From Octopus vulgaris (lineage: Eukaryota): DNA of 64,000 nucleotides. This document shows positions 11,683-64,000 of the stretch, one piece after another (the first letter of the stretch is position 1; the number at the start of each line of letters is the position of its first letter). Both the position numbers and the translations under genes were made by a program. The notes beneath the pieces were generated by a model. That model ran no database searches. It was not told where the DNA came from and worked only from the letters and a program-made list of their open reading frames with translations. The stretch lies in contig OX597818.1 of the NCBI GenBank assembly GCA_951406725.2, forward strand, positions 22,320,001 through 22,384,000, given 5' to 3'.

Positions 11683-11721
<39 letters not shown>

Positions 11722-12074: not shown

Positions 12075-12114
<40 letters not shown>

Positions 12115-39895: not shown

Positions 39896-42480
39896 TGGAC
39901 AATTATAAAGTGAATTTTAGGGCTTATAAATCTATTATTTTCCTATCCTTCCTTAATACCGGTTCCCATATGCTATTCATATCTGCACCTAATTACCCAC
40001 AACCATTTCAACGAAAGTATGAACCAACTGAAATAGATATCATTTGGGGCCTGTTTCTAATATTTTGCTCTGCAAAATAGATTTTTTTTTATACACCATT
40101 GAAGCGACTGACTTGTTTCACCAGCTAATAGAACAGCAATTTAATCAACCTATTGGCTAAAGATGTGGTGGATGTAGTAAATGACCACCATTTAGGTTAA
40201 TTGGTTGGATTCTATAGAGAAAGTTGAACGCTTGTGATTTAGAAACAATCATTAGAAAGCGTTATTAATGTAATTTTTTGATGAATTCTCATGTGATATG
40301 TTCTGGAAACTAAATAATGGAAGGGAAAAAAATGGAAAAAAAAAAGAAAAAATTCTGAGGCAATATGGCATTCAGTCAACTTTCCGATAGTTTTAAATGT
40401 AGGAGTGAAAAATTAAGAATCTCGTCCGTAAAAACACTAAGACTAGACCATAATATTAAGAGTAGTCATTTCATTAAGCTCAAAGAATGCCCATGGGCCT
40501 GTGCATATTCCAGTTTTGATCTAGGACGTCATAACGTTCGTCAAAGCTTAAGTGCGATACGTTACAATACATTAATGCATGGACCTTCTGTAAAAAGAGT
40601 ATCAAATTTGCTTTCATAAAAAGGGCAATTTTAATCCATTTTGTAAAACCTAGAATGTCAGGTCACTTTCGAGTGCTACTGGTAACATGTAACCCAGTAC
40701 AACCTGTTGCATGGTCGGGTCGTCGGCGACTAAACCGGCAACCCCACCAAGCTTGCTTGGTGAGGAGGGTGTTTATTGGACACCCTGCGGGATGAAAAAT
40801 AAAACCCGTCAAAGGGCGGAGGACCTCTTGAGAGTCAACGGCCAGCCAATAAATGTTAGCACGGGTACGCAGAAATTCCGGGGTGATGTCCGGCGTGCTG
40901 AAAGACCACTGGGAGTGAGGCGCCCCTCAGCTTTTGTTAAAGCATGCCTCTAGGATAAGGTCACTGATATAAAACCAGATATGCAGGAAATGGCATTGGA
41001 CATTTTGGGGATCTTTGGTTTGTGTTAGAGATCACGGCGCTCCCACATCCCTGAGCCTGCGACTCATTGGCACCAGACATCTTGCTCCGGCTTGTCTCTG
41101 GATAATGTCAAAGTGGAGAGGGTCTATGAGGTGTTGTGCAAGCCTTATTGGATCTAAAACTCTGCACAGGCATTGCCGACCTCTGCTCGATATGTGCATT
41201 TTTTTTATTGCGACCTACACCTCAGCACCAATGCAAAACGAAATCCTCGAATTGTTGAGAAGACACACTGTCAGGTTCGTGGTCGATGTTTATTTGAAAT
41301 TATATAAAAATAATGTTTAAAGATTTGGCTGTTATCTCTAGCATATAGAAATACCTTTTAGGCTTAACTATTTGCTTCTTGAAAATCATTAAAAAATATT
41401 TGAGTCGATACATTCAACTAAAAATTCGAGGTGATGCCCCAGCATGGCCTCAGTTATTACAGCAAATAAAATATAAAAAACAATACAATTTATATCAGAA
41501 GTTTTGACCAGGTTAGGCGTCAAGAAATGTGGGGGCGAAAAAAACCCCGAAAAATGTAAGCATGGGACTTTTGTCCACTTTCACACTTTAAGTAGGAGCT
41601 TTTGTCCGTACCCCTGTTCAGCACCCCCAGTTGCAATCGGCTAGCTACGTGGCTGCTAGTGACTTAGAAGTAATCAGACGTTAGCAATAATTTTCAGATG
41701 AATTTACACGTTATGAAAACTAAAACTAATGAAAAAAAAAAAAAAAGCGAATACAGAAGATGGAAATATGCCATTCAGTGAACATTCTGATCATTTTAAA
41801 TGTAGGTGTGAAACATTTGCTGTCCTCATTTTCATAGTCCCCTTCGTAAAAAATATTGGGAGTAACGGTCTCCAATGTCAAGTTCCAATATCATGATCTA
41901 ATTTTCTGGTGAATTGACTTGCGACATGTTCAGAAAACTATAAATAACGACAAAAAAAAAAAAAAAAAAAAGAGACTAGGCCACAACAGAGACTAGATCA
42001 TCCAACACTAGTTCAAGTAAATTTGAACCAACTGAAAACAAGCATCATTTGGTGTCAAAATATTTTTATGCACCAATGATTCTACTATTTACTGGCTCGT
42101 TTCACCAGCTAGTAACAAGAATCTGGCTAGTTTAACAGATTTAGAAGCAATCGTTAGAAATATACGTTTATAAAGAATTCACATGCGATATGTTCTGAAA
42201 ACTATAAATACAGGAAAAGGAAAAACGATATAAAAATAAATGTGGAACTTCTTGTCAATATACCATTCGGTCAATGACCTTCAGATAATTGTAAACGTAT
42301 GAATAAATTCGGAGTCCTCATTTATAGAATCTTGTCCGCAAAAATCTCGAGGCCAGTCCTCCCATCGAGATCAAACGATACACTTGGACTGTATATCCCA
42401 GTTTTGAAAATGGTACATTAGCACAATGATGTCCACGTAGGTCATATGCGGCATCTACATCCGAACTAGATCGTGATATC

Positions 42481-44481
42481 TCTCGAGGGACAACGCATGT
42501 AAGACCGAAACTCCCGGGGCTAGAAATAGCCTTTCTCGACCTAGCCAAAGCCTTCGATACTGTCTCGCATTCCCTCGTTTTTGCGGGCATGAGGAGGCTC
42601 GGTTACCACGACCACCTGATTCGATTAGTGTACCACTACCTTCACGATAGGGACCGGTAGTAGCGCGCCCATTGAGATAAAGCGCGGTGTTCGACAGGGA
42701 GACGCCCTATCACCCTTTTAACATCGCGACCGATCCACTGCTGGACAGCCTGCCCGCAAATATGGGTCTGCAGGTCGGAGGTGCGGTCGTGGCGGGCCTC
42801 GCATACGCGGATGACTTAGTGCTAGTCTCCGGCTCTAGCCGGGGTCTACAGTGCCTCTTAGATCGGTGCTCGGAGTTCTACCAAGCGGTGGGGCTCTCCA
42901 TTAACGTTTCCAAGTGCGCGTGGTTCTCCATTCGAAATTGGAGAAAGTCTTTAGTCAATGCGTCATCGCCGCCGACACTATGGTTGTCCGGTACCACGAG
43001 TCGAGCCGGATGAAAGCGTGCCGTACTTAGGGATGAGGGTTCGTCCCCGGTCGGCACAGAATAGGGGAACATCAGATGAGAACATAACGCGATGCATAAA
43101 CGAACTACGCCGGGCACCGCTAAAGCCCCGTCAGAAGTTTTTGATGCTACAACAGTATTACCTGCCTAGTCTGTTTTACAGGCTGACACAGGCGATACCC
43201 ACTAAGGTGGCGTTAGAGAAATTGGATATGATTGTACGAGGTGGGGCGCGAAGAATGCTCCATCTCCCGGACTCGACCTCGAAAAGCTTCCTGTACAGCG
43301 CAAGAAGGGACGGAGGGTTGAACCTCTGTCAGTTGGCGCGCGCTATACCGAAGAACGTGATTCGTAGGAACCTGCGTTTACTGGGCTCCGAATATGATGC
43401 TGTTCGCATGATAGCTCAGGCTGCCGATCTCGCCCATCAAAACGAGGAGCTATCCGCCCTGTTCGATCTACCATCTGTCCGAAATGATGGCAATCCATAC
43501 GCCCCTGACCTCCGCCTCATCCATGCCAAGAGATGGGCCTCGCAACCGGTCCAGGGTGTGTGTGCTGCCGCCTTCAAATCGGACCCGATTGGAAACAGTT
43601 GGCTGACACGACTGGGTTGAATCTCGGAGGGATGCTACTTGGGGATACTCAAGATGAGGACCAACACGTTTCCCACACGTGAATGCCTCACCCGTGGAGG
43701 TCGTGGCGATAGCACCTGCAAAAGGTGCGGAAGTGCGTCTGAAACGATCTCCCACATCAGTGGCCAGTGCTCACGCCTCAAAACAAAGAGACTGACCAGG
43801 TACACTCGAATATGCCGACTGTTGGCTAGGGAAGCCGAGCGGTATGGGTGGATGACCGGCTGGGAGCCGGTTTATCGAGTATCGGGGTCCAGATACATCC
43901 CCGATTTAGTGTTTCACAGTTCGAGCGAGGTTGTCATCGTTGATGTTACCGTCCGATATGAGCAGGACACGGCGTTGAGTGACGCTGCGCGCGAGAAAGA
44001 GAGAAAATACCGGCCGCTGATTCCGCTCCTCCGAGGGGAGCTGGGTGTACCGGTACGAGTGTTCGGCTGCCCGATAGGGGCCTGCGGCGCATGGTGCTCA
44101 GAGGCCGAGGAAGCATTGGCAGCACTGCACAATAAAGACAAACGTTTCATGAGGCTGCTAAGCAGAACTGCAATGATCTGCACGTTTAACATGTTAAGGA
44201 ATTGATAGGCTTAAGGAATTGATGCCACTCGAGTTCCTGTCGGATCCGACACGGAATACCCCTTCGATGAGGTCCTCACCTGGATTCTTTTTTGAGGACT
44301 GGTGTGTCGGAGACCCCTCAATTTTAAAAAAATTTTTAAAGTTTTATTTAATTTTTTTTCTACGAGGTGGTAGCAAGGCCTGTGTACCTTGCTTCGGCAG
44401 GAACTTTGATTTATATACCGATTTTGAAGAAAATTTTGTAGTGTCCCATCTATGTCGCCCCCTAGTGAGTAATAAAAAAAA
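42481..44481 (+). mobile_element. 5'-truncated R2-like non-LTR retrotransposon (family A): RT, CCHC knuckle, restriction-like endonuclease, 3'UTR and short poly(A)
   Basis: FLDLAKAFDTVSH, GVRQGD, LAYADDLVL, YLG, LKPRQK, DGGL, CKRCGSASETISHISGQC, YIPDLV...IVDVTV...EKERKY, PIGACGAW; ends aataaaaaaaa at about 44471-44481. Confidence 0.88.
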
Positions 44482-45017
44482 TCATTTGCAACACCACTAT
44501 CTCCTTCACCAATTCGTTGTAGAAAAGAGCGAAATTAAAAGTACTAAACTGCTGAGAATTTGTTTAAGAAACTTCTCGTCAAATATCTCTTATAGACCAA
44601 CAATACGGAAACCTAAAGGTAAGTTCACCGTGAAGAAAATTCACCGAGGAAATATATCCATAGTAAGAGTTAAAAACTATTTTATCGGAAAAGAGAAAAA
44701 ACGGTGAATTTTCTTTGAGATGAATTTATAGCGGTGAACTTACTGGATATAGCTCTTTTTTTTTTTTTACTTTGAATTTATTCGATATATTTTTAAATAT
44801 TCAAATGCTTGTAAGAATTGTAAACTGACTTTATAATTATTTTTTTAATTTTATGTGCTAACATAGTAATGGAATGGTTTGGATTCAGTAGATTACATTG
44901 TAATTTTATCTTGCAGTAACATTCTATCCAGGTGTAAAAAAATTTCTCTCGCAAATATTAATTCAAAAATGTATTAATTTCAATGAATACTGTCTTTCAA
45001 ATTACGGTACTACGTGC

Positions 45018-45268
45018 GACAGACGAGAATACCAAGCGACGCCACACCACTGATGCCACTCAGGGAGCGTTCAGATGGACCCGACGGGGGAGAGGAAAAC
45101 CCTGGACTCGACATAAGAAAGAAAGAGAAGAGGAAAAAGGAAAGAAGAAAAGAGACAACAATCGTCTGACAGACGAGAATACCAAGCGACGCCACACCAC
45201 GGATGCCGCCCAGGGGGCGTTCAGATGGACCTGACGGGGGAGAGGAAAACCCTGGACTCGACATAAGA
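45018..45268 (+). repeat. Two ~101-bp direct repeats (45018-45118 and 45168-45268) separated by a purine-rich spacer
   Basis: gacagacgagaataccaagcgacgccacacc...ggaaaaccctggactcgacataaga occurs twice with few mismatches. Confidence 0.9.
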
Positions 45269-46079
45269 CCCGGTTATGACAACCGCCGAAATGAAGTCTG
45301 GCGCCGTGAATTCGATCACTGGCCATGGCAGAGCGGGACGGGCAAACATCGGATGGACAGCGTGCGCGTCGCTATCGACGGAGTGCGTGTGAGACCGCCC
45401 ACATAAAATAACAGGGAAAGGTTGCTGAATCGCAAGTGCGAGAAAAGTATTTACGTACCAGACGACACAAAAAATCTCGAGGCCAATCCTCCCATCGAGA
45501 TCAAACGATACACTTGGACTGTATATCCCAGTTTTGAAAATGGAACATTAGCGCAATGTCGTCCACATACACCATATGCGACATCTCCACCCAAGCTAGG
45601 ATGTCATAACGCTCGTCAAAGGCAAAGTGTGATAAATTACTTCGCCAGAAAACACAATGCCACCACTAGTTCAACGAAAGTGAACCAACTGATGCATATC
45701 TGCGATATCATTTAAAATATTGAGACTAGCTCGGGAAATTGGGGTTGCATCTCCTATTCAGCACTATCGATACACTTGGGTTCTGTATATCCTAGTTTTG
45801 AAAGTGGAACATTAACGCAATGATGTCCACGTAGGCCATATGCGACATCTACATCCGAACTAGGTCGTGATATCACTGGTCATAGATAGAGTGTGAGAAA
45901 AGTATTCACATACCAGACGACACAATGCATAGACTGTCTGAATCCGTGTAAAATTTTTCTCCAGTATGAAAGTCGATTTTATTAATTTTTTTCTAAAATC
46001 TAAAACATTTTCAAAGCAAGCACCGCACAGGACTCGGTTGTTCAGTGTCAAGCTCATCTTTTAGTACAGAGAAAGAAAG

Positions 46080-46666
46080 CCATAGTGGAATGACAACGAA
46101 AATACAGATTTAACGTAAGAAGGAACATTGAGGTGGCGAGTTTAGCAACTGGCGAAGTGAATAACAAAATGAAAGGCGTGAATTTTGCAGCAGCGGCAGG
46201 GAGTAAAACTCGAAAGATAAATACCAATAATTAAAAAAATTACAGAGTTGTTAACAAAGGAGGGGACTGAAGTGAAAGTGGTCCCTCAAAATATCCAAAC
46301 TGACGTGTTAGAAAGAACAGTGATATTCAAAACATACGTGGAGAAAAAGAAAATCGATTACGTCAACGAAAAAGAAATTGAAAAATGTTTAAAGCCAATA
46401 TGGCAACACACAAAATACGTAATTCAAGGGAAAAAGTATGCAACAATAGAGGTTCGTATGGAGTCGGCCGAGAAGGTGAAATAGTACTCGCTCGAGCCAT
46501 TGCGAACAGAGGTGGTGGTACTCCTTCAGATATACATGGGGAGGAGAACCTCGAGGATCAGAATAGCGAACGTTCCGCCGGAAATGGAATCAGAATGGTT
46601 TGTGGCAGCAGTCTTACTAAATTTAGAAGAAATACTGCTGCTATCAGCCGAAGAGCAGACAACCTG
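46080..46666 (+). mobile_element. Tx1/L1-clade LINE ORF1 fragment (copy a, 5' part), interrupted by an R2-28S insert
   Basis: NFAAAAG, RTVIFKTY...EKEIEKCLKPIW...YATIEVR and YMGRRTSRIRIANVPPE; homologous to the ORF1 at 50573-51300. Confidence 0.75.
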
Positions 46667-48348
46667 GACATGGTCCTGGTTGCGAAATCGCACGATGGTC
46701 TTCAGGCTCTTATCGACAGATGCTTGGAGTTCTATCGTGGGGTGGGCTGGGACTTAATGTTGGAAAGTGTGCGTGGTTCTCCATCCGCGGCAGGAGCAAG
46801 TCCTGCCTAGTCAATCATAATACTCCGCCGAGCATTGATGGTATCGCTATAAAACAAGTAGAACCAGGGGAAAGAGCATCCTATCTAGGTTTGAACATTC
46901 CCACTTGCACTTCAAACTCATGTCGGGAGTTTAGTTTAGAACCAGTGGAGCATATGTCTCTGGATATAAATAAAATATGCAGAGCTCTGCTGAAACCCCG
47001 ACAGAAGTTTCTCTTGCTGCAGCAATATTACCTGCTTAGGCTCTTTCATAGTCTAGTACAGGTGCTGCCGTCAAGGGAATTCTTGAGCGGCTTGACACGG
47101 CCATCCGTGAGGGGGCTAGGAGGATGTAACATCTCCCTGAAACTACGTCCTCTTCCTTCCTCTATTGCAGCCTGCGTGACGGTGGGTTGAGTCTTCACCA
47201 GATGGTGAGACATACTAAAGTGCGCCATTCGCCGTAACCTTCGCCTGCTGACCTCTTATTATGTCTGTTAGGAAGGTTGCGGATTCTGCATGATTAACCG
47301 AACAGAACCAGCAACTTATAGTATCCTACGATTTGCCGTTGCTAGCTGCGGGCGCTACCGAGTACAACCCTGATATCCGGCTGGTTCACTTCCACAGATG
47401 GGCGGCCCAGCCGGTGTATGGAGCGAGCGCGGCGGCGTATCGTGGCGATGCAATCGGTAATAGTTGGATAAGTAGGCCGGGTAGGATTACGGAGGGGTGC
47501 TACTTGGGTTTACTCAAGATGCGCTCTAACGTGTATCCTACCCGAGAAACTGACACGTGGTCTCTGTGGCGATTCCACGTGTCCGAGATGTAGATTAGGA
47601 GCAGAGACCATCTTTCACGTCAGCGGAGTATGTGGCGCTCTTAAAGGGCCACGACTCGCCAGGCATAAGATATGTAGCCTGATGGCGAAGGAAGCTGTGG
47701 ACTATGGCTGGAGTGTCAGTGTGGAGCCTTCCTACATTGTAGGTGGCTCCAGGCTGATCCCTGATCTGGTCTTTAGCCGTCCGGAAAAGTAGTGGTAGTC
47801 GATATGACCGTCAGATTGGAACAAGGGGATGCCTTGAAAGAGGCATCCCTAGAGAAAATGCGCAAGTACCGACCGCTCGTACAATTGCATTTGCAGGAGT
47901 TCGATCGGCCGGTGGAGGTGCATGGGCTCCCAATCGGTGCCTGTGGTGCTTGGTGCAGACCTGCGAGTATGGCACTGGACGCCCTGGGCATAAAAGACAG
48001 GTCATTTCGACGACTACTTAGCCGGACGGCTATGATCCTAATGTACAATATGCTGAGAGACTAGCTCTCAGCATCGGGGGATTCATGCATGACCCCAGTA
48101 CGATGACATTAGCTTAACCCAACTGAAAACGATAATAAAAAGAAAACCGAACTGACTTGTAAATACCGATACCCGCCTTAGAGAATATTTTAGCTATTTT
48201 TTATCTGTTTTAATATTGTTCGGGACAGTGGGATCGTCTTGGCTTGGCATTTATGCCTGTATCCTGTGCGCGTCACTAACGGCGAAGCATAAAGTGGGAC
48301 CACCCACTATAAATAAAGGGAAGAGAGACTAAAAAGTCTATAATACCA
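46667..48348 (+). mobile_element. 5'-truncated R2 retrotransposon (family B, copy 1)
   Basis: DMVLVA...LQALIDRC, SYLG, LKPRQK, RDGGL, ETIFHVSGVC, IPDLV...VVDMTV...EKMRKY, PIGACGAW; the 3' end abuts TAGCCAAATGCC, the R2 site in 28S rRNA. Confidence 0.92.
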
Positions 48349-48481
48349 TAGCCAAATGCCTCGTCATCTAATTAGTGATGCGCATGAACGGATCAACGAG
48401 ATTCCTACTTTCCCTATCTACTGTCTAGCGAACGGGCTTGGACGGATCGGCGGGGAAAGAAAACCCTGTTGAGCTTGACTC
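48349..48481 (+). rRNA. Non-functional 28S rRNA fragment (133 bp) immediately downstream of the R2 insertion site
   Basis: tagccaaatgcctcgtcatctaattagtga...aacgagattcc...tccctatcta...ggggaaagaa-accctgttgagcttgactc matches the conserved eukaryotic 28S sequence, with a 16-nt internal deletion and substitutions. Confidence 0.95.
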
Positions 48482-49420
48482 AGAAGTCATAGACATTATG
48501 AACACAAAACTGGGAGTGATAGTTGAGAGAAAACCTCGCTGTTTTAAATGTGGGCTTTGAAGGTCACGTAAGGACTGAATGCAAGAAAGAAACAGAAAAA
48601 GAAGGCGAGGAGGAAGACAACCAAGTGGCAACAAAAGAAATAGAGAAACAGAATGATAATCAACAGTTATCGCCAAGCTAATTTGGCAGTCCATAAATAT
48701 AAGACTGCAGATGCCTGACCAGCAAGGGGAAGCGGCTGACCTCCCTTTTCAATGGTTATAATGGACACATGTTCGTGTGTCATATAGCTAGCTAGAGGCG
48801 ATGGCCTCTTGGAGCTAATCAACGGCAGCTTTAGTCTTATAGTTCACTTGGTCAGTTACAGTGATCATAAATTTGTCATTTGTAAGCTGGAACTAGATAA
48901 GTTAAATAGTAGAGGCTCCGGCTACTGCAAACTCAATAAGTCCCTTTTGGCGATTGAGGAGTATACGAAACGGATTAAGTTATTGATATAGAGGGCATTG
49001 ACAAGAAGCATAATTTACAATAAAAGGTAGTACGCCCTAAAAAAAGCCATCAAATTTGAGTATTAGATATAGCATAGGTTTAGTGAACGTAAGAGGGAAG
49101 TAGAACTAGCTAAGACCTTAGAGGAAGCCGTGATGACTGGCAGTACATCTCAGGTGAAGGCAAAGAGACTGGAATTAAACCAGCACCTCGAAGCCAAACA
49201 CATGGGGTGTATTGTCAGGGCTAGACTTCGTGCAATGGGTTGCGAGGGGATCAGAGCCGCTGGATGGGCCCCGAGTGGTGGAAGCCCAACGTGGAAATGA
49301 TTCCACAATTCGATCTTTGGAGAACCTACAAGGTGAGTTGGTAAACGAGCCTGAGGAGATATGTAAGACTTTTCAGGAGCACTTCGCCCAGCATTTCGGG
49401 GGTGGGGAGCGATGGACCGG
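48482..49420 (+). mobile_element. Tx1/L1-clade LINE copy a, continuation: ORF1 zinc knuckle and ORF2 endonuclease C-terminus/linker
   Basis: RKPRCFKCG...GHVRTEC (CCHC, one frameshift), SDHKFV...GSGYCKLNKSLL, and RARLRA. Confidence 0.75.
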
Positions 49421-50399
49421 ATAGTGCTTCTCGGAAAGCACACGATGAACGAAAGTCTGAACCAACTGAAATATGTGTTATCAGTTGGGGGTTTCTTTCT
49501 GCTGGATTTTGCAAAATATTACTTTTTATACACTATTGTATCCACTGACTAATAACACAGCAATCTAACCAATCTGCTGGTTAACGATGTCATGGATGCT
49601 ATATATGATCACCACCACTAGAGGGACATTTATCTTAACTTTTCCAATGGGTTGGACTACGCAGAAACACTAGTTGAGTATAAGAAATTTAGAAGCAATC
49701 ATTAGTGACCGTTGGCAATAGAATTTTCTGATCAATTTACATGTAATATATTTTTAATAATAAAAGCAAATATGGAACAAATTTAGAATTCCAAGACAAA
49801 AACATTCAGTCGACGAATTTCAGAATGAAAAATTAAATGTCCTCATTTTCATATTCTCGTCTGCAAAAATATTTCGGCTAGATCACAATATTGAAAAATT
49901 TGAAATAAATTTAGGATTTCTAGGCATTATACCATTCAGTCGACTTTCAGATCGTTTGTACCGTACGAGTGAAAAATTTAGTGTCTTCATTTACAGAATC
50001 TTGTCCGTAAATTCTCGAGACAAGACCTCCCATTGAAATCAAACGATACATTTGAGCTCTGTATATCCCAGTTTTGAAAGTGGAATATTAGCGCAATGAT
50101 GTCCATGTACTCAATACGTGAAATCTGTTAGGGTGTCATATCGGTCATCAAAGTGAGATAAATGAGTTAGGCCTGTAACAGACATGATTTGGGGCTGGTT
50201 TCAGCAGTATTTTGCTGGGAAAAATATTACATTTTTTTTATCGACTGGCTCGTTTAAGAGATTTCGAAGTAATCATTAGAGACCATTAGCAATATAGGTT
50301 TATCAAGAATCTACAAGTGTTAAGTTCTGAAAACTATAAATACAAAAGAAAATCGATATCAAAATAATTTTAGAACTTCGTGGCAAGATACCGTTAGAT

Positions 50400-52190
50400 C
50401 AGTCATCAATGGCCAGGTCGAATTTTCTCGTCTGTGTTATTCTTGATAGCTGAACCAACTGTTTTTGAGTGTGTTTTCTGGATTGTTAAATTGTTTACCC
50501 TTGTTATTTGGATTTTACCGTGGATTGTTATTTGTTGCCTTTTTTGAAGGAAGGGTAGGCCTAATGATGGCCAGCCCGACGGCGGACCTAACTAAGGAAA
50601 GCAAAAGCCCAGCTAGCCGAATGGCGAGCCCAGAAAAGGAGCCAGAAAGAATGGGTATACCCATTTTCTCAGACACCGACGAGGAGGAGGAGAGTGCGAC
50701 TAAAAAAGAAAAAATACGTGTTCGCTGGAATATTGACGTGCCAAGCCTGGCAAGAAAGCAATTGAATTTTGCCGAAGCGGCGGGCACGAAGGAGAAAAAA
50801 ATCGAACTCTCAAAATTAGACGACCTGAAGAAAAACAAAAAAAGAAGGATACGAAATCAAAATATTGCAACCACAAGAAGTTAAAGACATAGAGAAGAAG
50901 CCTATAAACTACAAAACCTACAGAAACAAAGAAAAGAAAATAGAATTTTCGTCAGAAAAAGAAATTGAAGTCTGTTTGAAACCCATCTGGGATAAAATAA
51001 AGTACATAACAAGAGGTAAAAGATATGGAAACGTGGAAGTAAGGTTCGAATCAGAGGAGGAAGCAAGAATACAATCATTGAATCCAGTAAGAACAGAGAC
51101 TGTAACACTCCTTCCCGTCTATAGGGGCAGGAGAATTTCGAGGGTTACAGTGATGAACATTCCCCGGAGATAGAGCCAGAAAGGATAGTGGCAGCAATCA
51201 CCATAGGACGAGGAAAAATTAGAGATGCCACTGTAGAGGATGCCAAAAAGTGGCAGGACCAGAAAGTCAAAATAATGCTACAGGCAGAGCCGGCCGTACT
51301 CGAGGAGTACCACCGCAGCTTTTTATTGTACGTTGGTAGAGGCCGGAAATGACGATGCCATAGGAAGGACCTTGGGCCTCGATAATAATTAGTTAGACAG
51401 CCTGTTCCAAAGGACATTCGGGCCGAAGACGCTGGATAATTTTCAGAAGTCTTTGACCTGGCAATGTTTCAGAGGAGCCTTACTCGTTCGGGATAAGCTC
51501 ACAAGGCATGATCACGGTGGACCACATCGAACTGTCCAATATGCGAGCGGGATGTGGAAACTGTCCCGCACGCTATTGCTCAGTGTCCGGAAATTTCGGA
51601 CATGTGGGTTTATGCAGAACACCTGTTGTCAGACGGAAGAAGAGTACAGCTATTGGCTGAGACAATTCTAAAAATTGACTCGCCTAGCTTTTTGACAAGC
51701 GAAGGTAAGCATTGCTTTCTCATCATAGTAGCAGTAGCGAAAGAGTGTATATGGAGGACTAGAATGAAAGGTATAAAGACAGACACCATGATCTCTGGCT
51801 CCGCCTCGGTGAACGTTTTTAAGTTCCACCTAAAAAGAAAGGTGGAGCTAGAGAAAAGGTGTCTGTCAGTATGCGAGTTCGAAAAAAGATGGAAGCGTGT
51901 CGCACGATTGCTGAGAGTGAAAGTGACCACATGAACACGCTGTAAGTCAGCTGCCAAGTTTCAGTGGGAAAAACAGGGCTCGTGGGGTCAGCAATCCTGG
52001 TTTTCCCACTTCATGCGTCGTTTAATGTTTGTAGTGTAAAAGTGTGTATCATTCGATTTTCTCGATTTTTGCAAATTTTTACCGTATTTTTCACGTTCAT
52101 TTTTATGTAATTACCATTGTTTTAACATGACCCCAAATCATGTGTTGTCCCCTTCTATGTTGGCCCCTAGTGGGCAATAAAGAAATTCAA
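50400..52190 (+). mobile_element. Internally deleted Tx1/L1-clade LINE (copy b): 5'UTR and ORF1 5' half fused to ORF2 C-terminal zf-RVT region and 3'UTR
   Basis: ORF1 NFAEAAG...EKEIEVCLKPIW...YRGRRISRVTVMNIP; from about 51305 ORF2 W...RGALLVRDKL...CPIC..ETVPHAIAQCP...W; 3' end cccctagtgggcaataaagaa. Confidence 0.8.
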
Positions 52191-53279: not shown

Positions 53280-53710
53280 AGTCGTGTCTGGTTCCAACAT
53301 GGCATCACAAGGCGAACAAAAATTGCTGTGTACCGTGCATGTGTACTGACATCGCTCATTTACTCATGTGAGACATGGACCCTTTACAAACGCCATGTAA
53401 AGATCCTTGAACGCTTCCGTCAGAGATGTCCGAGACATTCTGAATGTTGGCCGGACCTTAAAAACCACAGATACACAGGTCCTGAGGAAAGCCGATATCC
53501 TGAGTATTGAGGCTATGGTGCACAGACACCGGTTACGATGGACTGGACACCTTGTTAGAATGAATGATAGCAGGATCCCTAAACAGATGCTATATGGGTA
53601 ACTTGTTAGGGAAAAGCGACCCCGGCAGAAGCCAAGAGAGCGATTTAAGGACTGTGTAAAGTCCTCATTAAAGGCCTGTGAAATGCCGGAGGCTGACTGG
53701 AAGCTACATA
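53280..53710 (+). mobile_element. RTE-clade (BovB-like) LINE 3' fragment
   Basis: YRACVLTSLIYSCETWTLY, RLRWTGHLVRMNDSRIPKQMLYG and R-KD-VK-SLK. Confidence 0.85.
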
Positions 53711-53868
53711 GGTTTGTCAAGAACAGGGAGCACAAGTTTAAAGTATAAGGTAGTCTTGGACACACAATGTACCTAAAGGTCAGTAATGGTGTCTACTCAC
53801 ATAGGTACACTATGAGCTATACATACGCCGACGAAAATATGACCATTTTGCTTATCGGGAAATTTGTA

Positions 53869-54938
53869 CTGCAAGGTAGAAAGTGGTCCACAGATTAATG
53901 ACGTGACCGGTGTCGGGTGCTCTATATTGCGCCCGACTGTGATCTATACCAGAAATAGAGCGGGCATATTTAGGCTAGATTACACAACACAATCTCTGAT
54001 AGTGAAAGGTTTTCAGCTCCCGCTTAGTGGGGACCATGTAGTGTATGGGTGATCCTGATTGGGAGGTGTGAGCCTCCCCGCTAGGGTGGGTAGGCAGCCG
54101 CTGTTCTGCCCACTAGTAGTCCCGAGGTGGCTAATTAAATGCTGGCCAGGTTTAGCTTTCCTTCATTTAATGTGCAGGATGTGAGGGTTCCCATCGGGAA
54201 CACTAGGAATTTGGTCGGATCCATTCTTAGAATTACTGGGTGTTATCCTGGTTGTCTGGGAGGGACTTGATTAGGTTTCTGATGACTGAGTGTTTGTTGG
54301 GTTGGCCTGGGACACTTCGGGTGGTTCCTCGATAGGGATCGCTAGGTTGCTCTTGGACCCGATTGACAATGACTGGCAGTTATGACCCAGCTAGTGGTTA
54401 GTACTCGCGATAGACCACTTCTGGCAACGGGTGGATGCACTGTCAGACGGAGCCTTTCGCGGCTTGCAATTGAGTGTTGGTTAGTTGGCCGGTGGGTACT
54501 CTAGTCGGTTGGGGCGGTGGTTGCTAGCCTAACTAGGTGGGGGTAGTTTCACGCCATTTTTTAAAGTTTAAATTAATCGGTTCGGCCATGTATTCATGGA
54601 AATTGTCGCATAGATATAAGTATGAGAAACTAAGAGTTACTAAACATACAGTAGCCAGGCGCCGTTAAACTGGTGGCCTGTGGGTTCGGCACAGGGCCAG
54701 CAGGTCAGGCTGGACGTAATACCCAAATACGTTCGGCCGATTCGCGACCTTCCCCTGTAGTGGACAACGGGCTATCTCCACTGCAAGGTAGAGTTAGTGC
54801 CCCACAGATTAATGACGTGACCGGTATCGAGTGCTCTATATTGCGCCCGACAGTGATCTATACCAGAAATAGAGCGGACATATTTAGGCTAGATTACACA
54901 ACACATTCTCTGGTAGTGAAAGGTTTTCAGCTCCCGCT
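53869..54938 (+). repeat. ~155-bp direct repeat (53869-54024 and 54781-54938) at the 5' end of the long R2 copy
   Basis: ctgcaaggtaga...cagattaatgacgtgaccgg...gtgaaaggttttcagctcccgct occurs twice with few mismatches. Confidence 0.88.
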
Positions 54939-57900
54939 GGACCTAATACATGACCCCATCCATGACGTCCATTCTCTTACTTTAGAAATGGACCGAGAGG
55001 AGGTAGTGAGGGTATCAAGCCTCACTCCAGCAGGGAGCAAATTTTTGCTGCCTATTCCCGGCACGTCGTGCTCAATAGCCTGTCCGCTATGTCCTCTGCG
55101 CTTCTCTTCTCCCCAACGATAGGGAGAACATAGAATGTAGGCATGGTATTAAACCTGTCTACAGATGTAGCAAATGTAGGGAAAGCAGACACCTCTATTC
55201 GATGATGTGTGACGCCGGCTTGTGTAATGGTGCATCTGATGCGCCTGCCCCTAGTCCTACTCGGTCCTTCTTCCAATGTGACCACTGCAGCCGTTCTTTT
55301 TTGACGGCTGCAGGCCGATCACAGCACGAACGCCATAAACACCTTGTGGCTGCGAATGCGCGCAGGATGGCTGCTCAGAAAGAGTGGCTGGCAAAGAAGC
55401 GTGCTGATCGGGCAGCCGCTGCCGAGGCCTTAGACGGAAGACGCAGAGGCTGTTGGTCAGACGAGGAAGTAACGGTCCTCGTCGAGAAGGGGGCCGAGTT
55501 CTTGAAGGCAGGGGTTAGGTTAATCAATGCAACCATTGCACGGTTCCTACCGGGCAAGACTGCCAAGCAGGTAGGTTCCAAGAGGGCGGCCCTGGCCAAA
55601 AAGGACTCGTGAGTCATCAAGGGTCAGGGCTGCTCGTGGCTGATTCCCAGCCACAAGTTGAAGGAGGACCCCAGTCTGGTTTAGACTGGAGAGATCGCTT
55701 CCTCGACGATGCATGTCTCGGGCATACCCATTGGTCAGCGGTCTTCTCCGAGGCCCTATCGGAACTCGTGGAAGACAGGACAACGGCCGCCTGGGGCTCC
55801 TTTGTCAGAAGAGTAGAGGACTGGGCAGAGCACTTTAAGATGCGTAGGGAAGATGCTGCCAGAGGAAATAGTAATAATATAGCTAAATATAAGCCTAACT
55901 TTCGGCGGCGGGGTAAGCTCATAAGATACGCCCGCCACCAGGACTTGTATAAGAAGGATAGGAAGAGGCTCTTTGCGGTTGTGCTAGGCGAGGATACGGA
56001 GCAGGGATGCCCAATCCCTATGTATGCTATAGAAGAGATCTATAGGGGAAGGCCAACTGCTGCAGGCCCTGAGGTCGATCTCTCCGACTACTCTTCCTCC
56101 TCCCAGGTTGAGAACGGCCCTATTTTGCGGCCGTTCACGGTGGAGGAGGTTAAAATTAGTCGGAGACGAATGAACACCATCTCAGCGACGGGTCCTGATG
56201 GACTCACAATTAGTGAGATTAAATCCATGGAACCAGTTATCCTCGCGAATGTTTGCAACTGCATGCTGCTGGCGAGTAAAATACCCGATATCCTGAAGCA
56301 TGGTAGATCCGTCCACGTATCAAAGAGGGCGGAAGATCTATATGATCTTACAAATTGGTGACCATTGACGATATGATCCGCGGTATATCGTCTTTTTACT
56401 AAAATGGTCGCCAAACGTATGCTTCAGGTAACTCCCCTTAATCCAAGCCAGCGTGACTTTATCCGCGCTGAGGGCTGCAGTGAAAACTCGTTTCTCCTTC
56501 GGCAGCTCGTCAGCCGCGCGATGGAGAGGCCAGCACGACTGAGAATACCGCGGCTGGAGGTTGCCTTCATGGATCTCTCCAAGACCTTTGACATAGTCTC
56601 GCACTCTTTAGTGTATGTGGGACAGCGAAGACTTTGGTTCCACGAGCATATAATAAAACTCGTGGAGGGGATCTACGAAGGCAGCACTATCAGATTCTCA
56701 TCCGTGGGCAAGTTAGCGAACCCATCCAGAATCGCCGGGGTGTTTGACAGGGGGACGCGCTCTCACCGTTCCTCTTCAATATTGCAACTGTTGAGGGGAT
56801 CCGGATGGATGGAATCGCATACGCCGATGACATGGTCTTCAGACTCTTATCGACAGATGCTTGGAGTTCTATCGTGGGGTGGGCTGGGACTTAATGTCGG
56901 AAAGTGTGCGTGGTTCTCCATCCGCGGCTTGGGCAAGTCCTACCTAGTCAATCATAATACTCCGCCGAGCATTGATGGTGTCGCTATAAAACATTCCCAC
57001 TTGGACTTCGAACTCATGTCGGGAGTTTAGTTTATAATCAGTGGAGCATGTGTCTCTGGATATAAATAAAATATGCAGAGCTCTGCTGAAACCCCGACAG
57101 AAGTTTCTCTTGCTGCAGCAATATTACCTGCCTAGGCTCTTTCATAGTCTAGCACAGGTACTGCCTGCAAGGCGAATACTTGATAGGCTTGACACGGCCA
57201 TCCGTGAGGGGGCTAGGAGGATGTAACATCTCCCCGAAACTACGTCCTCTTCCTTCCTCTATTGCAGCCTGCGTGACGGTGGGCTGAGTCTTCACCAGAT
57301 GGTGAGACTTATACCAAAGTGCGCCTTTCGCCGTAACCTTCGCCTGCTGACCTTTGGATATGACTATTAGGAAGTTGGCGGATTCTGCAGGATTAGTCGA
57401 ACAGAACCAGCAACTTACAGTATCCTACGATTTGCCGTTGCTAGCTGCGGGCGCTACCGAGTACAACCCTGATATCCGGCTGGTGCATTCCCATACATGG
57501 GCGGCCCAGCCGGTGCATGGAGCGTATGTGGCGGCGTATCGTGGGGATGCAATTGGCAATAGTTGGATAAGTAGGCCGGTTATGGTTTACGGAGGGGTGC
57601 TACTTCGGTCTTCTCAAGGTGCGCTGCAATGTGTATCCCACCCGAGAAACTGACATGTGGGTCCCGTGGGGAATCCACGTGACAGATGTAGATTAGGAGC
57701 AGAGACCATTTCTCATATCAGTGGAGTGTTTGGCGCTCTTAAAGGGCCACAACTTGCCAGGCATGACAAGATATGTAGCCTGGTGGCGAAAGAATCTGTA
57801 GACTATGGCTGGAGTGTCAGTGTGGAGCCTTCCTACATTGTAGGCGGCTCCAGGCTGATCCCTTTAGCCGTCCGGAAAAAGTAGTGGTTGTTAATATGGC

Positions 57901-58446
57901 CGTCCGATTGAAGCAATCAGATGCCTTGAAAGAGGCATCTCTAGAGAAAATGCGCAAATACCGACCGCTCATACAATTACTATTATAGTAGTTTGATCGG
58001 CCGGTTGAGGTGCATGGACTCCCAATCGGTGCCTGTGGTGCCTGGTGCCGTCCAGTAAGTGTGGCACTGGACGCCCTGGGCATTCGTGACAGGTCATTTC
58101 GACGATTACTCAACCGGGCGGCAATGTTACTTATGTACAATATGCCGAGGGACTGGCTCTCAGCATGGGGGTCCTGCATACATGACCCCAGTACGATGAC
58201 ATAGGTTCGACCTAACCAAGAAAAACAAATTAAAAAGAAAACTGGCTATGACTAAATAACGATACCGTTTCAGAGGATGTTTTAGCTTTTTTTTTAACGC
58301 TTTTAAATATTGTTTGGGACAGTGGGATCGTCTTGGCTAAGAATAAAGTAATGCCTTATGTCCTGTGCGCGTCACTAAGACGAGGCATGAGTGGGACCAC
58401 CAACTATAAATAAAAGGAATCGGTGACTTAAATGTCCATTTCAAAC
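54781..58446 (+). mobile_element. Near full-length, disrupted R2 retrotransposon (family B, copy 2) with three N-terminal zinc fingers and a Myb motif (R2-A-type architecture)
   Basis: CPLC...GEH..CRH, YRCSKC...MMCDAGLC, FQCDHC...GRSQHERHKH, Myb WSDEEV...LPGKTAKQV, SATGPDG, EGCSEN, FMDLSKTFDIVSH, AYADDMV, LKPRQK, ETISHISG, RHD, EKMRKY; ends at TAGCCAAATGCC. The 5' boundary is uncertain and may extend to about 53870. Confidence 0.92.

Positions 58447-58481
<35 letters not shown>
58447..58481 (+). rRNA. 35-bp 28S rRNA fragment downstream of the R2 insertion site (non-functional)
   Basis: tagccaaatgcctcgtcatctaattagtgacgcgc matches the conserved 28S sequence 3' of the R2 cleavage site. Confidence 0.93.
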
Positions 58482-58852
58482 GAATTCATGGACAGTTTAC
58501 AAAAGTGTAGCAAAATTTTCCTTCAATAAAAAGTGCAATTTCAATAATTTTTGGAAAATCTAGAACGTTTTCAAAGCAAGCACTGCACAGGACACGATCA
58601 ATCAGTGTCGAGCTCATCTTTTAGTATTGAGAAAGACAGCAGCAGTCTCGGTGAGATCATGAAATTAGCAACGCAACTCGATCAGCTCAAAGAACGAGCA
58701 CTTAATCATCCACAACCATTTCAAAGAAAATCTGAAGCAACTGTGGGACGATTTACGGTTTCTGTTGTAGTTTGCCGGGCAAAATATTTCTTTTGAAGCT
58801 ACTGAATTGTTTTACCAGCTAGTAGCACAGCATTTAACCAATCTACTGATTA

Positions 58853-60107
58853 CGGAGGAAAGATTTGAACCTGTGTGATTATTTTTATGAACTGTAGCCT
58901 GTTAATTTAGAAAAATTTATTGTATTTTTCTGTTACGAAAAAATGTCAATTGAAATTAAAGCGTGAATGGCTCTAGTTGAAGAAACTCCAAAAACAACTA
59001 TGGCAAGTACAGCTGCCAGAGATTTTGCGGCAACGGTCGCGGTACATCAAGAAAACATGTCGATCCCACGGTCGGAGTACCAGACAGATTATGAAAAGTT
59101 AACGCTGAGGCCGAGGCATCTGAGGTACTACCTAGTTGGTGAACAGCAGTGGTCTCCGTTCGTCAGATGGCTGCTTCCTAGGTTCACTAGCTTTAGAGAA
59201 CTAGAACATTGGATCCATCGTAGACCAAAGTACGGCGAATGGCACTTGGAGTGTCGACAGGCACTCTAGTTTCTCTCTCACACGGGCAATGCCAGCGGCG
59301 GGGGCTCTACGTCGTTCTTCCATAGAAGATTGGTAGAGGCGAGGAATGATGACGGCCTGGGGGAGACTAGGCTTCGACGAAAATCAGTTAGCCTGTTCCG
59401 AAGAACATTCGGGCCAGGGTCTTTGGATAACCTCCAGAGATCTAACCTAGCAATGCTTCCGAGGCGCGCTACCGGTTCGCAATAAACTCGCAAAGCATGG
59501 TGGCTCCTGTTCACCCCTGTGCCCAACATGCAAACAGGACAGGGAAACCGTTCTGCACGCGATTGTGCAATGCCCCAAAATTATTGAAATGTGGGTTTAT
59601 GTAGAAAGTCTGTTGTCACGACTGGCAAGAGTACAGCTGTCTTCCGAGTCAATCATAAAAATTGTCCCTTCTTCCTTTCATAAAGAAGGTAAGGCTTGTT
59701 TTCTCACTGTAGTAGCTATTGCGAAAGAAGTCGTGTGGAAGACCCGTGCGAAAGGTATCGTGACAGGCACTTTCATCTCGAGCCTTGGATTGGTGAGGTT
59801 CTTATCCTTGCACCTATAAAGGAATGATAGAGAAGGAGTGCCTTTCGCCGGACGTATACAAGATGTAAGGTTGTCACGAGTGAAGGTCACCACCTAAGAG
59901 TGTACAGAAAGTCTTTCTAAAGGTAGCAGTAGCGAATCGGGGCTTGCGGGGCCGAAAGCAGAACCCGTCCCCACTTCATTTTGTGTCGTAATTTCATCCG
60001 ATTTTATTATGAAAAAAGATTTTTCATAGTTATGTTTTTTCATCCTGGCCCCACTTCATTGTATCGTCCCCTCTATGTCTGCTCCCCTGTGGGCAATTAA
60101 GAATTAA
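58853..60107 (+). mobile_element. Internally deleted Tx1/L1-clade LINE (copy c): 5'UTR and ORF1 start fused to ORF2 C-terminus and 3'UTR
   Basis: MALVEE...RDFAA start; LFQRTFGPGSLDN, CPTC...ETVLHAIVQCPKIIEMWVYVE; 3' end cccctgtgggcaattaagaa parallels copy b. Confidence 0.75.
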
Positions 60108-61164
60108 GTCGTTGTAGAGTCATTGTACGAGTTAAGATGGAGTTAGTGTAGTTACATATTTGTTGTCAAAGTGTGATAGAGTTACCGGGCAACACCTTAA
60201 TGCATGGACTGTTTGCATAAGAGTATCAAATCTTATTTCTCTATAAAGGGCAATTTTAATCATGTTTGGAAAATCTAGAACGGCTTGAAACTAGCACCGC
60301 ACAGGACTCGGTCGATCAGTGTCGAGGTAATCTTTTAGTATTGGGGAAAGACAACAATAGTCTCAATGAAGTCATGAAACAAACTTGTCGATCAGCTCAC
60401 GAAGAGCAAGCACCTAATCATCTAACACCAGTTCAAGCAAAGTCTGAACCAACTGAAACATTTGCGATATTAGGGATTTGTTTCTACTGTGAAAAATCTT
60501 ACTTTTTATATACACCATTGAAGCCACTGCCTTGTTTCACGAGCTAATTTCACAGCAATTTAAACAATCTACTGGCTAACGATGCGATGGATGCTATACA
60601 TGATGACCAGTGGATTAACATTCATCTTCAATTTACTAATTAGTTGGAGTCTATACAGAAACTTGTTAAACAGCTATGTAGAAGTAGTCATTAGAGACCG
60701 TTAAAATATAATTTAATAAATTTACATGTACTAATTTCTGAAAACTATGAATAAGGAAAATAAAGAAAATGAATACGGAAGAAATTTAGAATCTCTAGGC
60801 AATATGCTGTTCAGTCAACGACTTTTAGGATGTTCTAAACGTACGAGTGAAAAATTTAGTGTAACTTTCAAATCCTCGTCGGTAATAAATTTGAAATTAG
60901 ATCATGATATTGAGACTAGACAATCCATTCAGTTCAGACGCCATATGCGAAATCTCCACCCTAGCTAGGATGTCAAAGTTCCCCAAATTTAAAGAGTGAT
61001 AAAGGAATTACCAGACAATGCATGCACTGTCTGCAAAAGTGATTAAAATAGCTCTTTTAATGAAGAAAACTAATTTAAAATCTGGAATGTTTTGAAAATA
61101 GCACTACACTGGACTCGATCGATCAAGATGAACTGTCGCTAAAGGCAAAGACAGGAAGAAAAAA

Positions 61165-61525
61165 TATGTATACCCCTTAAAGCGGATCTGGGTTATTCTT
61201 CTGCTGAACTGCTGTAAGGAGTTATTGCCTGGCCAGATGTTAGCATCAACGGTTACGTCTACTCAGGATCTTTCCATCCATGTTAACCGATTGTGGCCAT
61301 ACTTCTGATCTACCGTCGATGAAAACTGTTACAATCTGTGAAATCCGCCGTCCCGAAGGACATTGCTTCGTGAACCCACTTATTCTTGCGCAATGACTAT
61401 GACACGCCCTCTCACACCATCATATACAGGACCTTATTGGGGTTCTTCCTCATAGACAAGCTCTTCACTATTGACATTAATGGTAGGAAAGAGACTGTAT
61501 CGGTGGATAGACTTAAGGCGTTATC
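61165..61525 (+). mobile_element. Gypsy integrase C-terminal fragment
   Basis: LKADLGYSSAELL, VPKDI...THLFLRND, SYTGPY and FTIDINGRKETVSVDRLKA; homologous to the minus-strand segment at 36885-37346. Confidence 0.75.
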
Positions 61526-63433
61526 ACAAAATAAAACCCCTAAGTGAAAGAGAAATTTAAAACAAAATTTAGCATACCCCATTGATGTTTTATACAAGAG
61601 AAAAAAGTTGAATGAGGAAAAAATAAGCTCTAATTCTAATTTATTTAGCTCAATAGAGTTTGCTCAGCTGGAGAGGGTTGTATTAAACTCATTAGATGGA
61701 AGAGAATAATTAGAGCACCAAAATAGAAAGGGGTTTTGCTTTCAAAACAGTTTAAGATAACCTGCGGACATCCTTTTGGTATCCGTTCACCCTCATCAAC
61801 TGAGGAAGACAAACGTAGTGGAAGATTTGGTGAAAATAAAACTATTGAATTACAGGTTAGTAAGCCCAATAGCATTTTCCCCTATTGTGATAAGACTAGT
61901 GTTGCACAGTCTTGATAGCCAATAGCAACTCAACATAATTTAGACAAAGAATCTCTGATGAATACTCCAACTCGGGGTTTGCTGAAAGAATGAGTTGAAA
62001 AAAGGAAAAACTACCACCAATGAAGTATATAGACATATATATGGACATATTTGACTTGACCTATCAACGCTCTGTAAGCCGGCCTGTCTTGCACGATCAA
62101 ATCTCCAGGCCACGCAACTATTTCAGCAAGTCATTCACAGAAAATATTCATCAGATATAAAACCCACAGAGACAAAAATGTCAAATGGATGAGATGTTTA
62201 CAGAACTGAAAAATTCTTTTGACTAGAAATGCCTATTTTGTAGAAGATAAACCCAGTTAAGGCGAGTTAAGAACGTAGCAATGTCATGATTATCGTACAA
62301 ATTAACTGGTGCACAAACTGTCCAACGGCGTACCAATGCAGAAAAGCAAGTAATTTAATGTGTAAAAATAAAACCTGTATTTGGAGGAGCACATGACAAA
62401 TACAACGCAGTAACACAGAGCGAGACTTTTTCGGATCAAATTCTGTCTTTTTTCCTCGTATAGATTTTATGAATATTTGTAATTTTTCCCCATGAGATAA
62501 CGTAGTAATCTTTATCAGGTAAAAATTGTGAAAATTTTATGAACAGAATAGGAGCAATTAGTAGCGGTTACACTAACAACCGCAAGGTAAAATACTGTAT
62601 ATCACATGCGAGTTGGAAAACCTCAATCAACTGGGATTACCCAAATCGGACAAAAACTCCCTAATGGAGATCAAAGTCTAAATACAAAGCGAGATAATGC
62701 CAATAAATTCAATTGCTCTGAACAGAAAAAAGGGCAGCGTCAGTGGGAGGGGTAACCTTTATTGTATAAATTCTACCGATGTAACTAAAATCTAAGTAAT
62801 TCGGGTGTTCTGTACCACTAAATAGATTGTAACAAATTTGACTAACCACTTCGCGAAGGCGATCGTTAGCTGCTCAAATTACTCGAAATTGGACAATACA
62901 AAGAATGGGCTGAAAGAACGTTTGCACGTACCCGAGTCCTTACTGCAGATAGATTATTTTTTCCAACGCAGATCACTTCCACCAGCTCCTTCGGATTCCA
63001 GATTTTACTGTATTACAGTAAATTGCGACTTTCTCTTAATATTCATCATCTAACGCTTCTCAAGTTTTACTAATACACAAAAAGTATCTACATGTTCACA
63101 CACCGAATAAATCGTATTGACATCCCCCGTTCATCTCGATGACGCCTTGCACAGTTAACCGACATCTCTTCGATTTCTTGAACACAAACTAAATTCACAG
63201 CTTGCTGAAACCCGATTTTTTAAATGGAATATTTTAAATGGAATTCGTTTTTCTTTTATTTTTCATTTAGAGAAAATACATGATTCTGTATGAAATTAAG
63301 TAAAATTAAATACTTACAGGGAAGGCAACAAATGAGGTACGAATACTTTCACTAAAATAGTAAAAACTAATAGTAAATTCACAAATACACTTGAATCTTA
63401 AGCATCAGGGGAAATCTTGACAATGTTAAAATA

Positions 63434-64000
63434 TCAGGTTGGTGCAAAAGTGATGTCCGATTTCCAGAAAAAATGTTTGAGAGCGAATTTATCAATTTTT
63501 TAACCTCTTATAGTTTTAAGAGATCTCTGTGTCTAATTTGTACTATTTTCTTTCAGATTATCTAACTTCTGACCTTAATTCTCAGAAAATTTTACCACTA
63601 TGTTTGTCCCATTTAAAGATCACATAAGAAATATTTTACTCTACAAGTTTCATAAAGATGTTAATGCAAGTGTGGCAGCAAGATCCATTCAGAGCACTTA
63701 TGGGGACGATGAAGTGAATGAAAGAATGCAGGAGGTGGTTTTCCCGCTTCCGAAGTAGCGATTTCACTTTGAAAGAGGACCCGAAAGAAGGTCGTCCAAA
63801 AAAACTTGATTCCGAAATGTTGGAAGCTCTTGTTTCAGAGAATCCGACCGTTACCACCAGGGAACTTTCAGAACAGTTAAACGTGGCCCATACAACCGTA
63901 TACGCCTGCTAAAACACATTGGAAAGGTTTCAGTGTCTGGAAAATGTGTCCCTCACGAGCTGTCTCCATAGAATCGACAACAGTGTGCTGCTTGTTGTCA
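63434..64000 (+). mobile_element. mariner (Tc1/mariner) DNA transposon: left TIR and disrupted transposase N-terminus, running off the window
   Basis: TA followed by tcaggttggtgcaaaagt (Hsmar1-like TIR). From about 63600: HIRNILLYKF...YGD...CRRWFSRFRSSDFTLKEDPKEGRP...TTRELSEQLNVAHTTV...GKCVPHEL, with frameshifts. Confidence 0.9.

Follow-up and report, generated by a model that had tools for sequence, protein, structure and literature searches.

Co-oriented transposon fragments on an amplified RhoGEF processed pseudogene of Octopus vulgaris, a candidate uni-strand piRNA source

The window analysed here is a stretch of 64,000 nucleotides (C5:22,320,001-22,384,000) of the 2.8-Gb genome of Octopus vulgaris, to which flanks of 80 kb on the left and 150 kb on the right were added. 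A domain of about 24 kb (39.98-64.1 kb), with ordinary repeat content on either side, forms an archive of broken transposon pieces that lie on the plus strand and are set in an amplified processed pseudogene of a Rho guanine nucleotide exchange factor (RhoGEF) gene. From the sequence layout, this archive is tentatively read as a candidate source of PIWI-interacting RNAs (piRNAs) of the uni-strand type, read from the minus strand, with a confidence that stays somewhat below even. An earlier note, made from the letters of the window, had described the region as nine co-oriented transposon fragments in a tandem-repeat scaffold, and had proposed a flamenco-like cluster and a piRNA master locus.

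Judged by sequence comparison, the "tandem repeat" of that note is an amplified processed pseudogene of a host RhoGEF gene. The repeat of about 1 kb is limited to this locus except for one match, on C2, which consists of two segments 2,689 nt apart within a minus-strand gene. The first segment represents the terminal part of the last coding exon in a C1-DH-PH RhoGEF (91% to P0013), which we take to be of the Lbc type; the second is preceded by a polypyrimidine-AG acceptor, and the interval opens with GT (2,689-nt GT-AG). This parental intron, deduced from sequence and not from RNA, apparently lies just past the stop codon, in the 3' untranslated region (UTR; L020:981-3,671). The two segments are joined in the scaffold, where the joined exons outscore either exon-intron boundary at 7 of 7 places (marginally at one of them), and six scaffold copies cross the splice junction with 65-78% identity to the parent. 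Homology stops at a genomic A-rich tract of the parent, the original ends of the retrocopy being blurred by amplification. As aligned, a unit joins about 590 nt from the 3' end of the spliced RhoGEF mRNA, in sense orientation on the plus strand, with about 450 nt of other DNA, for which no source was found; it has been amplified about sevenfold and is long dead. Two other identities were rejected: a structural-RNA array or site-specific target (within 28-64 kb Rfam matched nothing but a 28S piece, and the window has no tRNA according to ARAGORN), and a coding gene family (codon periodicity is absent, stops are shared in all six frames, and there is no significant Pfam match). The scaffold copies are as follows.

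39985..40636, plus strand: copy 1, spliced RhoGEF 3'-end retrocopy, with the next unit beginning behind it (70.6% in 473 columns aligned with the parent exons, junction included)
41700..42485, plus strand: copy 2, rearranged (repeat comparison)
45440..46085, plus strand: copy 3, mostly the unit part without identified source (repeat comparison)
49430..50395, plus strand: copy 4, two splice-junction pieces (parent alignment)
52290..52970, plus strand: copy 5 (72% to the parent across the junction)
58480..58850, plus strand: copy 6 (65.5% to the parent across the junction)
60160..61130, plus strand: copy 7, the most complete retrocopy (72.4% over 591 columns; tblastn to the RhoGEF C-terminus, E 1e-10)

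Transposon pieces were located by tblastn with a library of element proteins from the same genome (55 candidate proteins checked with Pfam), which covers R2, Tx1, RTE, R4/Dong, CR1, Penelope, Tc/mariner, Merlin and four Gypsy pieces and also includes pieces of the window and of control windows. With hAT, Helitron, BEL and DIRS absent from it, pieces of such groups on the minus strand could escape; Pfam scans of most of the remaining gaps gave nothing significant. The clade names Tx1 and RTE are labels that we assign from domain layout. All nine fragments of the earlier note were recovered on the plus strand near the positions given there, and no minus-strand match to the library was found in 40-72 kb. 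Pfam reported RVT_1 and zf-RVT pieces in the window and a Mos1 helix-turn-helix (HTH) at the mariner piece. Two R2 entries were corrected: the copy placed at 46,667 (46,660 in the present list) is nested in a Tx1 that starts at about 46,086 and resumes at about 48,485, and the copy placed at 54,781 starts at 54,024, where three relatives also begin. Two further plus-strand pieces are absent from that note, namely the 5' UTR of a young long interspersed nuclear element (LINE) at 40,655-41,209 and a Tx1 3' tail at 44,436-44,500. The scaffold retrocopy is likewise sense on the plus strand. As the note had stated, the junctions lie at different points of the repeat unit. Target-site duplications were absent from all 8 junction pairs tested. 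Nesting and heavy deletion mark the elements: two Tx1 copies have lost most of open reading frame (ORF) 2, and one its 3' end. The pieces, including the 28S rRNA sequence attached to two of them, are listed below.

40655..41209, plus strand: young high-copy LINE, 5' UTR only (92-96% to 39 other scored copies among 2,074 candidates)
42486..45437, plus strand: R2 family A, 5'-truncated and interrupted by other pieces (ORF piece 42,475-44,202; 3' UTR end 45,254-45,437)
44436..44500, plus strand: Tx1 3' tail nested in the 3' UTR of the family-A R2 (86% identity with the tail that separates two Tx1 ORF1 units in L226)
46086..49430, plus strand: Tx1 without its 3' end, retaining an ORF1 piece and ORF2 residues ~224-411, host of the nested family-B R2 (tblastn)
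46660..48348, plus strand: R2 family B, copy 1, 5'-truncated in the reverse transcriptase (tblastn)
48349..48481, plus strand: 133 nt of 28S rRNA lying 3' of the R2 target site (Rfam match to LSU_rRNA_eukarya at E 9e-4, under the gathering score; 85-87% identity with the 28S that flanks rDNA-associated R2)
50400..52186, plus strand: Tx1, ORF1 fused to the ORF2 3' end with most of ORF2 gone (3' tail with AATAAA at 52,176; second AATAAA at 52,197)
53271..53703, plus strand: RTE-type LINE, 3' piece of the ORF (40-48% amino-acid identity to RTE-type library proteins)
53868..58446, plus strand: R2 family B, copy 2, from 5' end (54,024) to 3' end, with a duplicated 5'-region piece in front (tblastn, relatives)
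58447..58481, plus strand: 28S rRNA tail, 35 nt, abutting the scaffold directly (28S comparison)
58853..60108, plus strand: Tx1, short 5' part fused to ORF2 residues ~864-1110 with the 3' tail (tblastn, Pfam)
61128..61854, plus strand: Gypsy-type integrase C-terminal piece, purine tract and likely 3' long terminal repeat (LTR; 61,679-61,854) (tblastn 48%; LTR from motifs only)
63434..64000, plus strand: mariner transposase piece, running on to about 64,836 (Pfam HTH_48, E 1.6e-7)

In 6 of 11 fetched copies of the young LINE an endonuclease-type ORF lies downstream on the same strand. The 1.8 kb at 61,600-63,430, which contains the likely LTR, has no Pfam match, and no second copy of it was found.

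The background was taken from 40 random 20-kb windows of 16 large contigs, scanned with the same library. These held 76 elements in total, at most 5 per window, and their adjacent pairs were concordant in 22 cases and discordant in 22. The archive has 8-10 elements and a coding cover of 47-53%, versus a mean of 9% in the random windows, and all library matches in 40-65 kb are on the plus strand. Repeats common to at least four random windows number 7-31 in each random 20-kb window and zero in 40.0-64.0 kb, where a 66-nt remnant at 41.39 kb stays below the common-repeat threshold; low-complexity DNA makes up 6-9% of the archive versus 12-40% of the flanks.

Both family-B R2 copies end in 28S sequence from downstream of the target site (133 and 35 nt), with no 28S sequence upstream, and the family-A copy of the locus is without a 28S tail. 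Stray R2 copies elsewhere carry 28S tails of 24, 45 and 84 nt, so the tail is a genome-wide habit; the tails probably arose by reverse transcription of R2-28S co-transcripts. The family-B copies, whose independence the earlier note had questioned, are sisters (90.3% identity, support 0.99 among 17 pieces) and are therefore counted once, which leaves 8 independent events among the nine listed fragments. In amino-acid sequence the family-A piece is 79-87% identical to two open R2 ORFs (1,276 and 1,311 aa), and its 3' UTR also matches; a family-A probe gave at least 88 matches genome-wide (150 of 1,033 candidates scored). Its relatives in L033, L035 and L037 are bracketed by both 28S flanks and are thus true 28S elements. 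R2-bearing 28S sequence was observed on several chromosomes (L033-L038: C20, C5, C11, C2, C33 and others), as dispersed rDNA units or orphons, two of these loci having the open R2 ORFs of 1,276 and 1,311 aa. In rDNA-bearing loci the 28S gene is followed by degenerate copies of its R2 target (L033:~1,469, L035:~1,389, L037:~1,454, L034:~9,500), and similar 28S-like sites occur in a C18 array of family-B R2 (L040:~7,626, L042:~433); this arrangement suggests a second, spacer-like R2 target.

Seven loci with stray R2 copies were surveyed over 20 kb or more, with borders set after looking. Library elements lie on one strand in 17 of 18 cases at C6:94.56-94.61 Mb, in 12 of 13 at C18:79.79-79.85 Mb and in 7 of 7 at C1:194.37-194.39 Mb (20 kb), and the C6 and C18 loci are also without common repeats. 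Since similar loci exist on C6, C18 and C1, the proposal of a single master locus does not hold. The C6 locus is a stronger cluster candidate than the archive on C5. It is a 51-kb one-way archive poor in short interspersed nuclear elements (SINEs), with R2, Tx1, RTE, mariner and Penelope pieces (L187 and L088-L091, L087 excluded). Besides its 18 library elements it has one minus-strand ORF that looks hAT-like and has no Pfam match, and a 415-aa minus-strand ORF 10 kb off is directed at it.

The archive on C5 lies between converging genes. On the left are C2H2 zinc-finger genes on the plus strand at 7.2 and 29.2 kb, the nearer one being directed towards the archive.

29230..31491, plus strand: C2H2 zinc-finger gene, left neighbour

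On the right, a plexin-like receptor kinase gene is directed at the array from the minus strand; its coding exons occupy window-equivalent 142,887 to 88,980 (L001-L008), the last of them ending 25 kb right of the window. The gene has Sema, PSI, TIG and tyrosine-kinase domains according to Pfam, a layout that we take to be MET/RON-like; its database label is plexin-A1, yet the tyrosine-kinase domain is present and the plexin cytoplasmic domain absent. Because this gene ends at 88,980, a position of the archive inside one of its introns was ruled out. The neighbouring proteins are 91-98% identical to proteins named in Octopus bimaculoides. The one-way domain is flanked at about 39.8 kb and at 64.2-64.4 kb by tRNA-headed SINEs, whose minus-strand orientation we read from A/B-box motifs. 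Further to the left, a plus-strand Gypsy-type pol piece at 36,315-38,962 includes an inverted integrase piece (36,888-37,187) and is bracketed by an exact 123-nt direct repeat without TG...CA ends, which looks like DNA-repair capture rather than LTRs, and a degenerate (TA)n array of 2 kb occupies 10,118-12,193.

Evidence on transcription comes from contigs of 4 of 24 sequencing runs, compared over 48,500-58,400; the contigs are strandless, and uncovered bins were not used. None of the runs is recorded as RNA; X1 and X2, from two studies, are RNA runs by guess, and X17 is of RNA-like size.

48812..52152, strand not given: near-continuous contig cover by X1 and X2, with few differences, across element-scaffold junctions

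Within this stretch, X2 record 24 covers 49,126-50,322 with 4 differences, and X17 contigs reach 57.4 kb. Junctions are bridged by contigs of large or probable RNA runs (X15 at 52,163-52,573 and 53,646-54,682, X17 at 53,315-55,024), which argues against an assembly artefact at those junctions. The uni-strand cluster reading of the earlier note is partly upheld, in its co-orientation and in a density far from background, and part of the region is covered by contigs of probable RNA runs. Two weak signals fit a minus-strand domain: AT skew changes sign at about 40 kb, with negative values in 11 of 12 bins on the left and positive values in 15 of 18 on the right, and one SINE family is found as 1 plus and 4 minus copies in 65-89 kb, the same bias as inside the kinase gene (3 plus, 9 minus). 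The A-richness of the scaffold was not counted as strand evidence because it is inherited from the mRNA. Substitutions in the family-B R2 copies are asymmetric (G>T 13 vs C>A 0; T>A 13 vs A>T 4), in conflict with those of the scaffold (C>T 26/337 vs G>A 10/267; G>T 3 vs C>A 8), and A>G and T>C differences in the contigs are balanced.

Under the uni-strand reading, a LINE would have copied the 3' end of the RhoGEF mRNA by priming at the A-rich tract of its 3' UTR, and the retrocopy with its flanking DNA would have been amplified to about seven units. A minus-strand transcript would then cross the array, possibly as read-through from the receptor kinase gene. Insertions antisense to this transcript would be kept, as they cause no termination and supply antisense guides; sense insertions would be purged, and deletions would trim the remainder. 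The precursor would be cut into primary piRNAs against LINEs, R2 and, via the tails, 28S sequence. A further version, in which the retrocopy was caught antisense in a read-through transcript, nucleated the cluster and was amplified as a landing array, and in which a class of octopus loci traps R2-28S co-transcripts one way so that guides silence R2-bearing rDNA in trans, is quite improbable in our view.

Possible guide targets were counted as 28-mers matched within 2 mismatches among the fetched loci. The young LINE 5' UTR had matches for 463 of 528 28-mers, the family-A R2 for 1,021 of 1,690 (mostly in other stray copies), the family-B pieces for 623 of 1,662 and 1,520 of 4,396, one Tx1 for 548 of 1,760 and the 28S tail for 87 of 106; the RTE, Gypsy and mariner pieces matched none, their relatives being outside the fetched loci. 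A preprint reportedly describes Piwi repression of R2-bearing rRNA genes (10.1101/2025.04.30.651568). By the 28-mer matches the locus could act on the young LINE and is largely a record of older R2 lineages; RhoGEF regulation is unlikely.

Several observations weigh against a minus-strand piRNA source. Over about 140,000 windows, chance is expected to give 0.9-2.8 windows with at least 8 co-oriented elements and 0.09-0.5 with at least 9. The co-orientation for which the earlier note computed 1/256 (9 of 9) is real; given 8 independent listed events and this expectation, that figure alone is not decisive genome-wide. The case is carried by density, the extra plus-strand pieces and the sister loci, not by the orientation count alone. 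Among the surveyed stray-R2 loci, those on C22, C26 and C5:126.7 Mb are mixed and that on C7 has just 3 elements, all on the plus strand. Repeated insertion of R2 at a degenerate 28S-like target may have produced the C18 array. The 24-kb stretch that separates the array from the kinase gene is not transposon-dense and holds a minus-strand Tx1, unlike typical downstream-of-gene clusters. Among the contig ends listed, those of X1 and X2 coincide at 52,152, which is 24 nt short of a plus-strand AATAAA (52,176; another at 52,197), and X15 and X17 continue; this stop is a weak hint at plus-strand RNA, and the same picture would result from a fork in the graph or from another haplotype. DNA carry-over may be the source of the contigs. 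The scaffold matches its RhoGEF parent at just 66 of 4,864 28-mers. Compared with five rDNA-associated R2 copies, the family-A ORF is 78-81% and the family-B pieces are 63-73% identical, and with pieces at 63-81% the suggested defence against present-day rDNA R2 is doubtful.

A rather unlikely alternative is that the orientation follows from the mode of insertion, start-site-seeking or chain-forming Tx1 and R2 landing head to tail, and that sense RNA arises from 5'-end promoters or from read-through of the zinc-finger gene. The ends of two probable RNA runs just before plus-strand Tx1 poly(A) signals would fit this, as would the nesting of elements in one another and the several pieces that are 5' ends (the young LINE 5' UTR and Tx1 5' parts). 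However, the mariner, Gypsy and RTE pieces are also on the plus strand, the junctions lie at different unit points, X17 covers across 52.2 kb, and the nearest TATA-like word (50,335) is at least about 65 nt before the Tx1 at ~50,400, whose 5' end is not pinned, instead of about 30.

The region might also be crossed by an ordinary transcript of the minus strand, either non-coding or due to read-through. Insertions in sense would then be lost only through termination or mis-splicing, as in introns, and no piRNAs of consequence would be made; we assign this a low probability. This would account for the fact that 4 of 5 retroelement matches in the neighbouring minus-strand gene are also on the plus strand, it agrees with the AT skew and SINE patterns, and in the cited part of a primate study reversed pseudogenes in clusters mostly look like by-products (PMC6461890). 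It leaves unexplained why transposons are fivefold denser, why 16 kb hold three R2 pieces, why common repeats are missing and why C6 and C18 show the same signature. A neutral, deletion-prone graveyard, in which local duplication reduced the number of independent events and the remainder is chance from a genome-wide scan, fits the sister family-B copies, the absent target-site duplications, the large deletions and the 0.9-2.8 windows expected for 8 co-oriented elements, but is quite unlikely in view of about 11 independent orientable events, including the retrocopy, the LINE 5' UTR and the Tx1 tail, all on the plus strand (two-sided p ~0.001 for one window), and of the C6 locus, which repeats the pattern with mixed families.

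Among known systems, the candidate uni-strand source best resembles the uni-strand clusters of slugs and the downstream-of-gene clusters of mammals; the comparisons made here refer to the cited parts of the reports. Clusters of the slug Arion vulgaris are mostly uni-strand, with minus-strand piRNAs over plus-strand transposons in the pictured case (PMC11615739), and Deroceras laeve is a second slug with such clusters (PMC12506671). As in these molluscs, transposon fragments are packed on one strand in one of many loci, whereas piRNAs and strand were measured in the slugs and the octopus locus is known from sequence; the retrocopy scaffold and the 28S-tailed R2 copies have no mention for slug clusters in those parts (PMC11615739, PMC12506671). 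Mammalian piRNA clusters often lie downstream of genes (piC-DoGs) and, like the octopus locus, have a gene directed at the array from the strand opposite the transposons and a mixed content of young LINE and LTR elements; unlike them, the octopus array begins about 24 kb past the last coding exon, with ordinary DNA between (PMC11615739). Broken, strand-biased transposons are shared with Drosophila flamenco and flam-like clusters. The syntenic flam loci outside the melanogaster subgroup span 227-1,085 kb with a Gypsy-driven bias, and R2 is there among the families under dual-strand clusters (PMC10643416). A flamenco-like nature is not borne out for the octopus locus, which has 24 kb and not hundreds of kb, mostly LINEs and one 0.7-kb Gypsy piece (PMC10643416). 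As in primate clusters with reversed pseudogenes, a host pseudogene would be antisense to the cluster transcript, yet the octopus processed piece was amplified about seven times as a backbone and at 65-72% identity hardly targets its parent (PMC6461890). Copies of R2 and R1 outside the rDNA of Drosophila are incomplete, R1 copies having short 28S flanks, whereas octopus R2 tails reach 133 nt and the stray copies cluster in one-way loci (PMC2718515).

New are the amplified RhoGEF retrocopy as a backbone and the gathering of 28S-tailed R2 copies. No literature on mapped individual cephalopod piRNA clusters or on this locus was found, supplements, which could hold cluster coordinates, aside. Molluscs have broad piRNA expression (PMC6128900), an octopus Piwi-like transcript has been reported (PMC9115989), and octopus small-RNA libraries exist (PMC12479628). 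The scaffold and its junctions are unique in the genome and map unambiguously, so that with these libraries the small-RNA prediction is cheap to test. Should the piRNA reading be false, the locus is still a clear example of a processed pseudogene made into a local tandem array. If it is true, the locus would document the origin of a cluster on an amplified retrocopy and the recording, outside the rDNA, of an element otherwise restricted to it.

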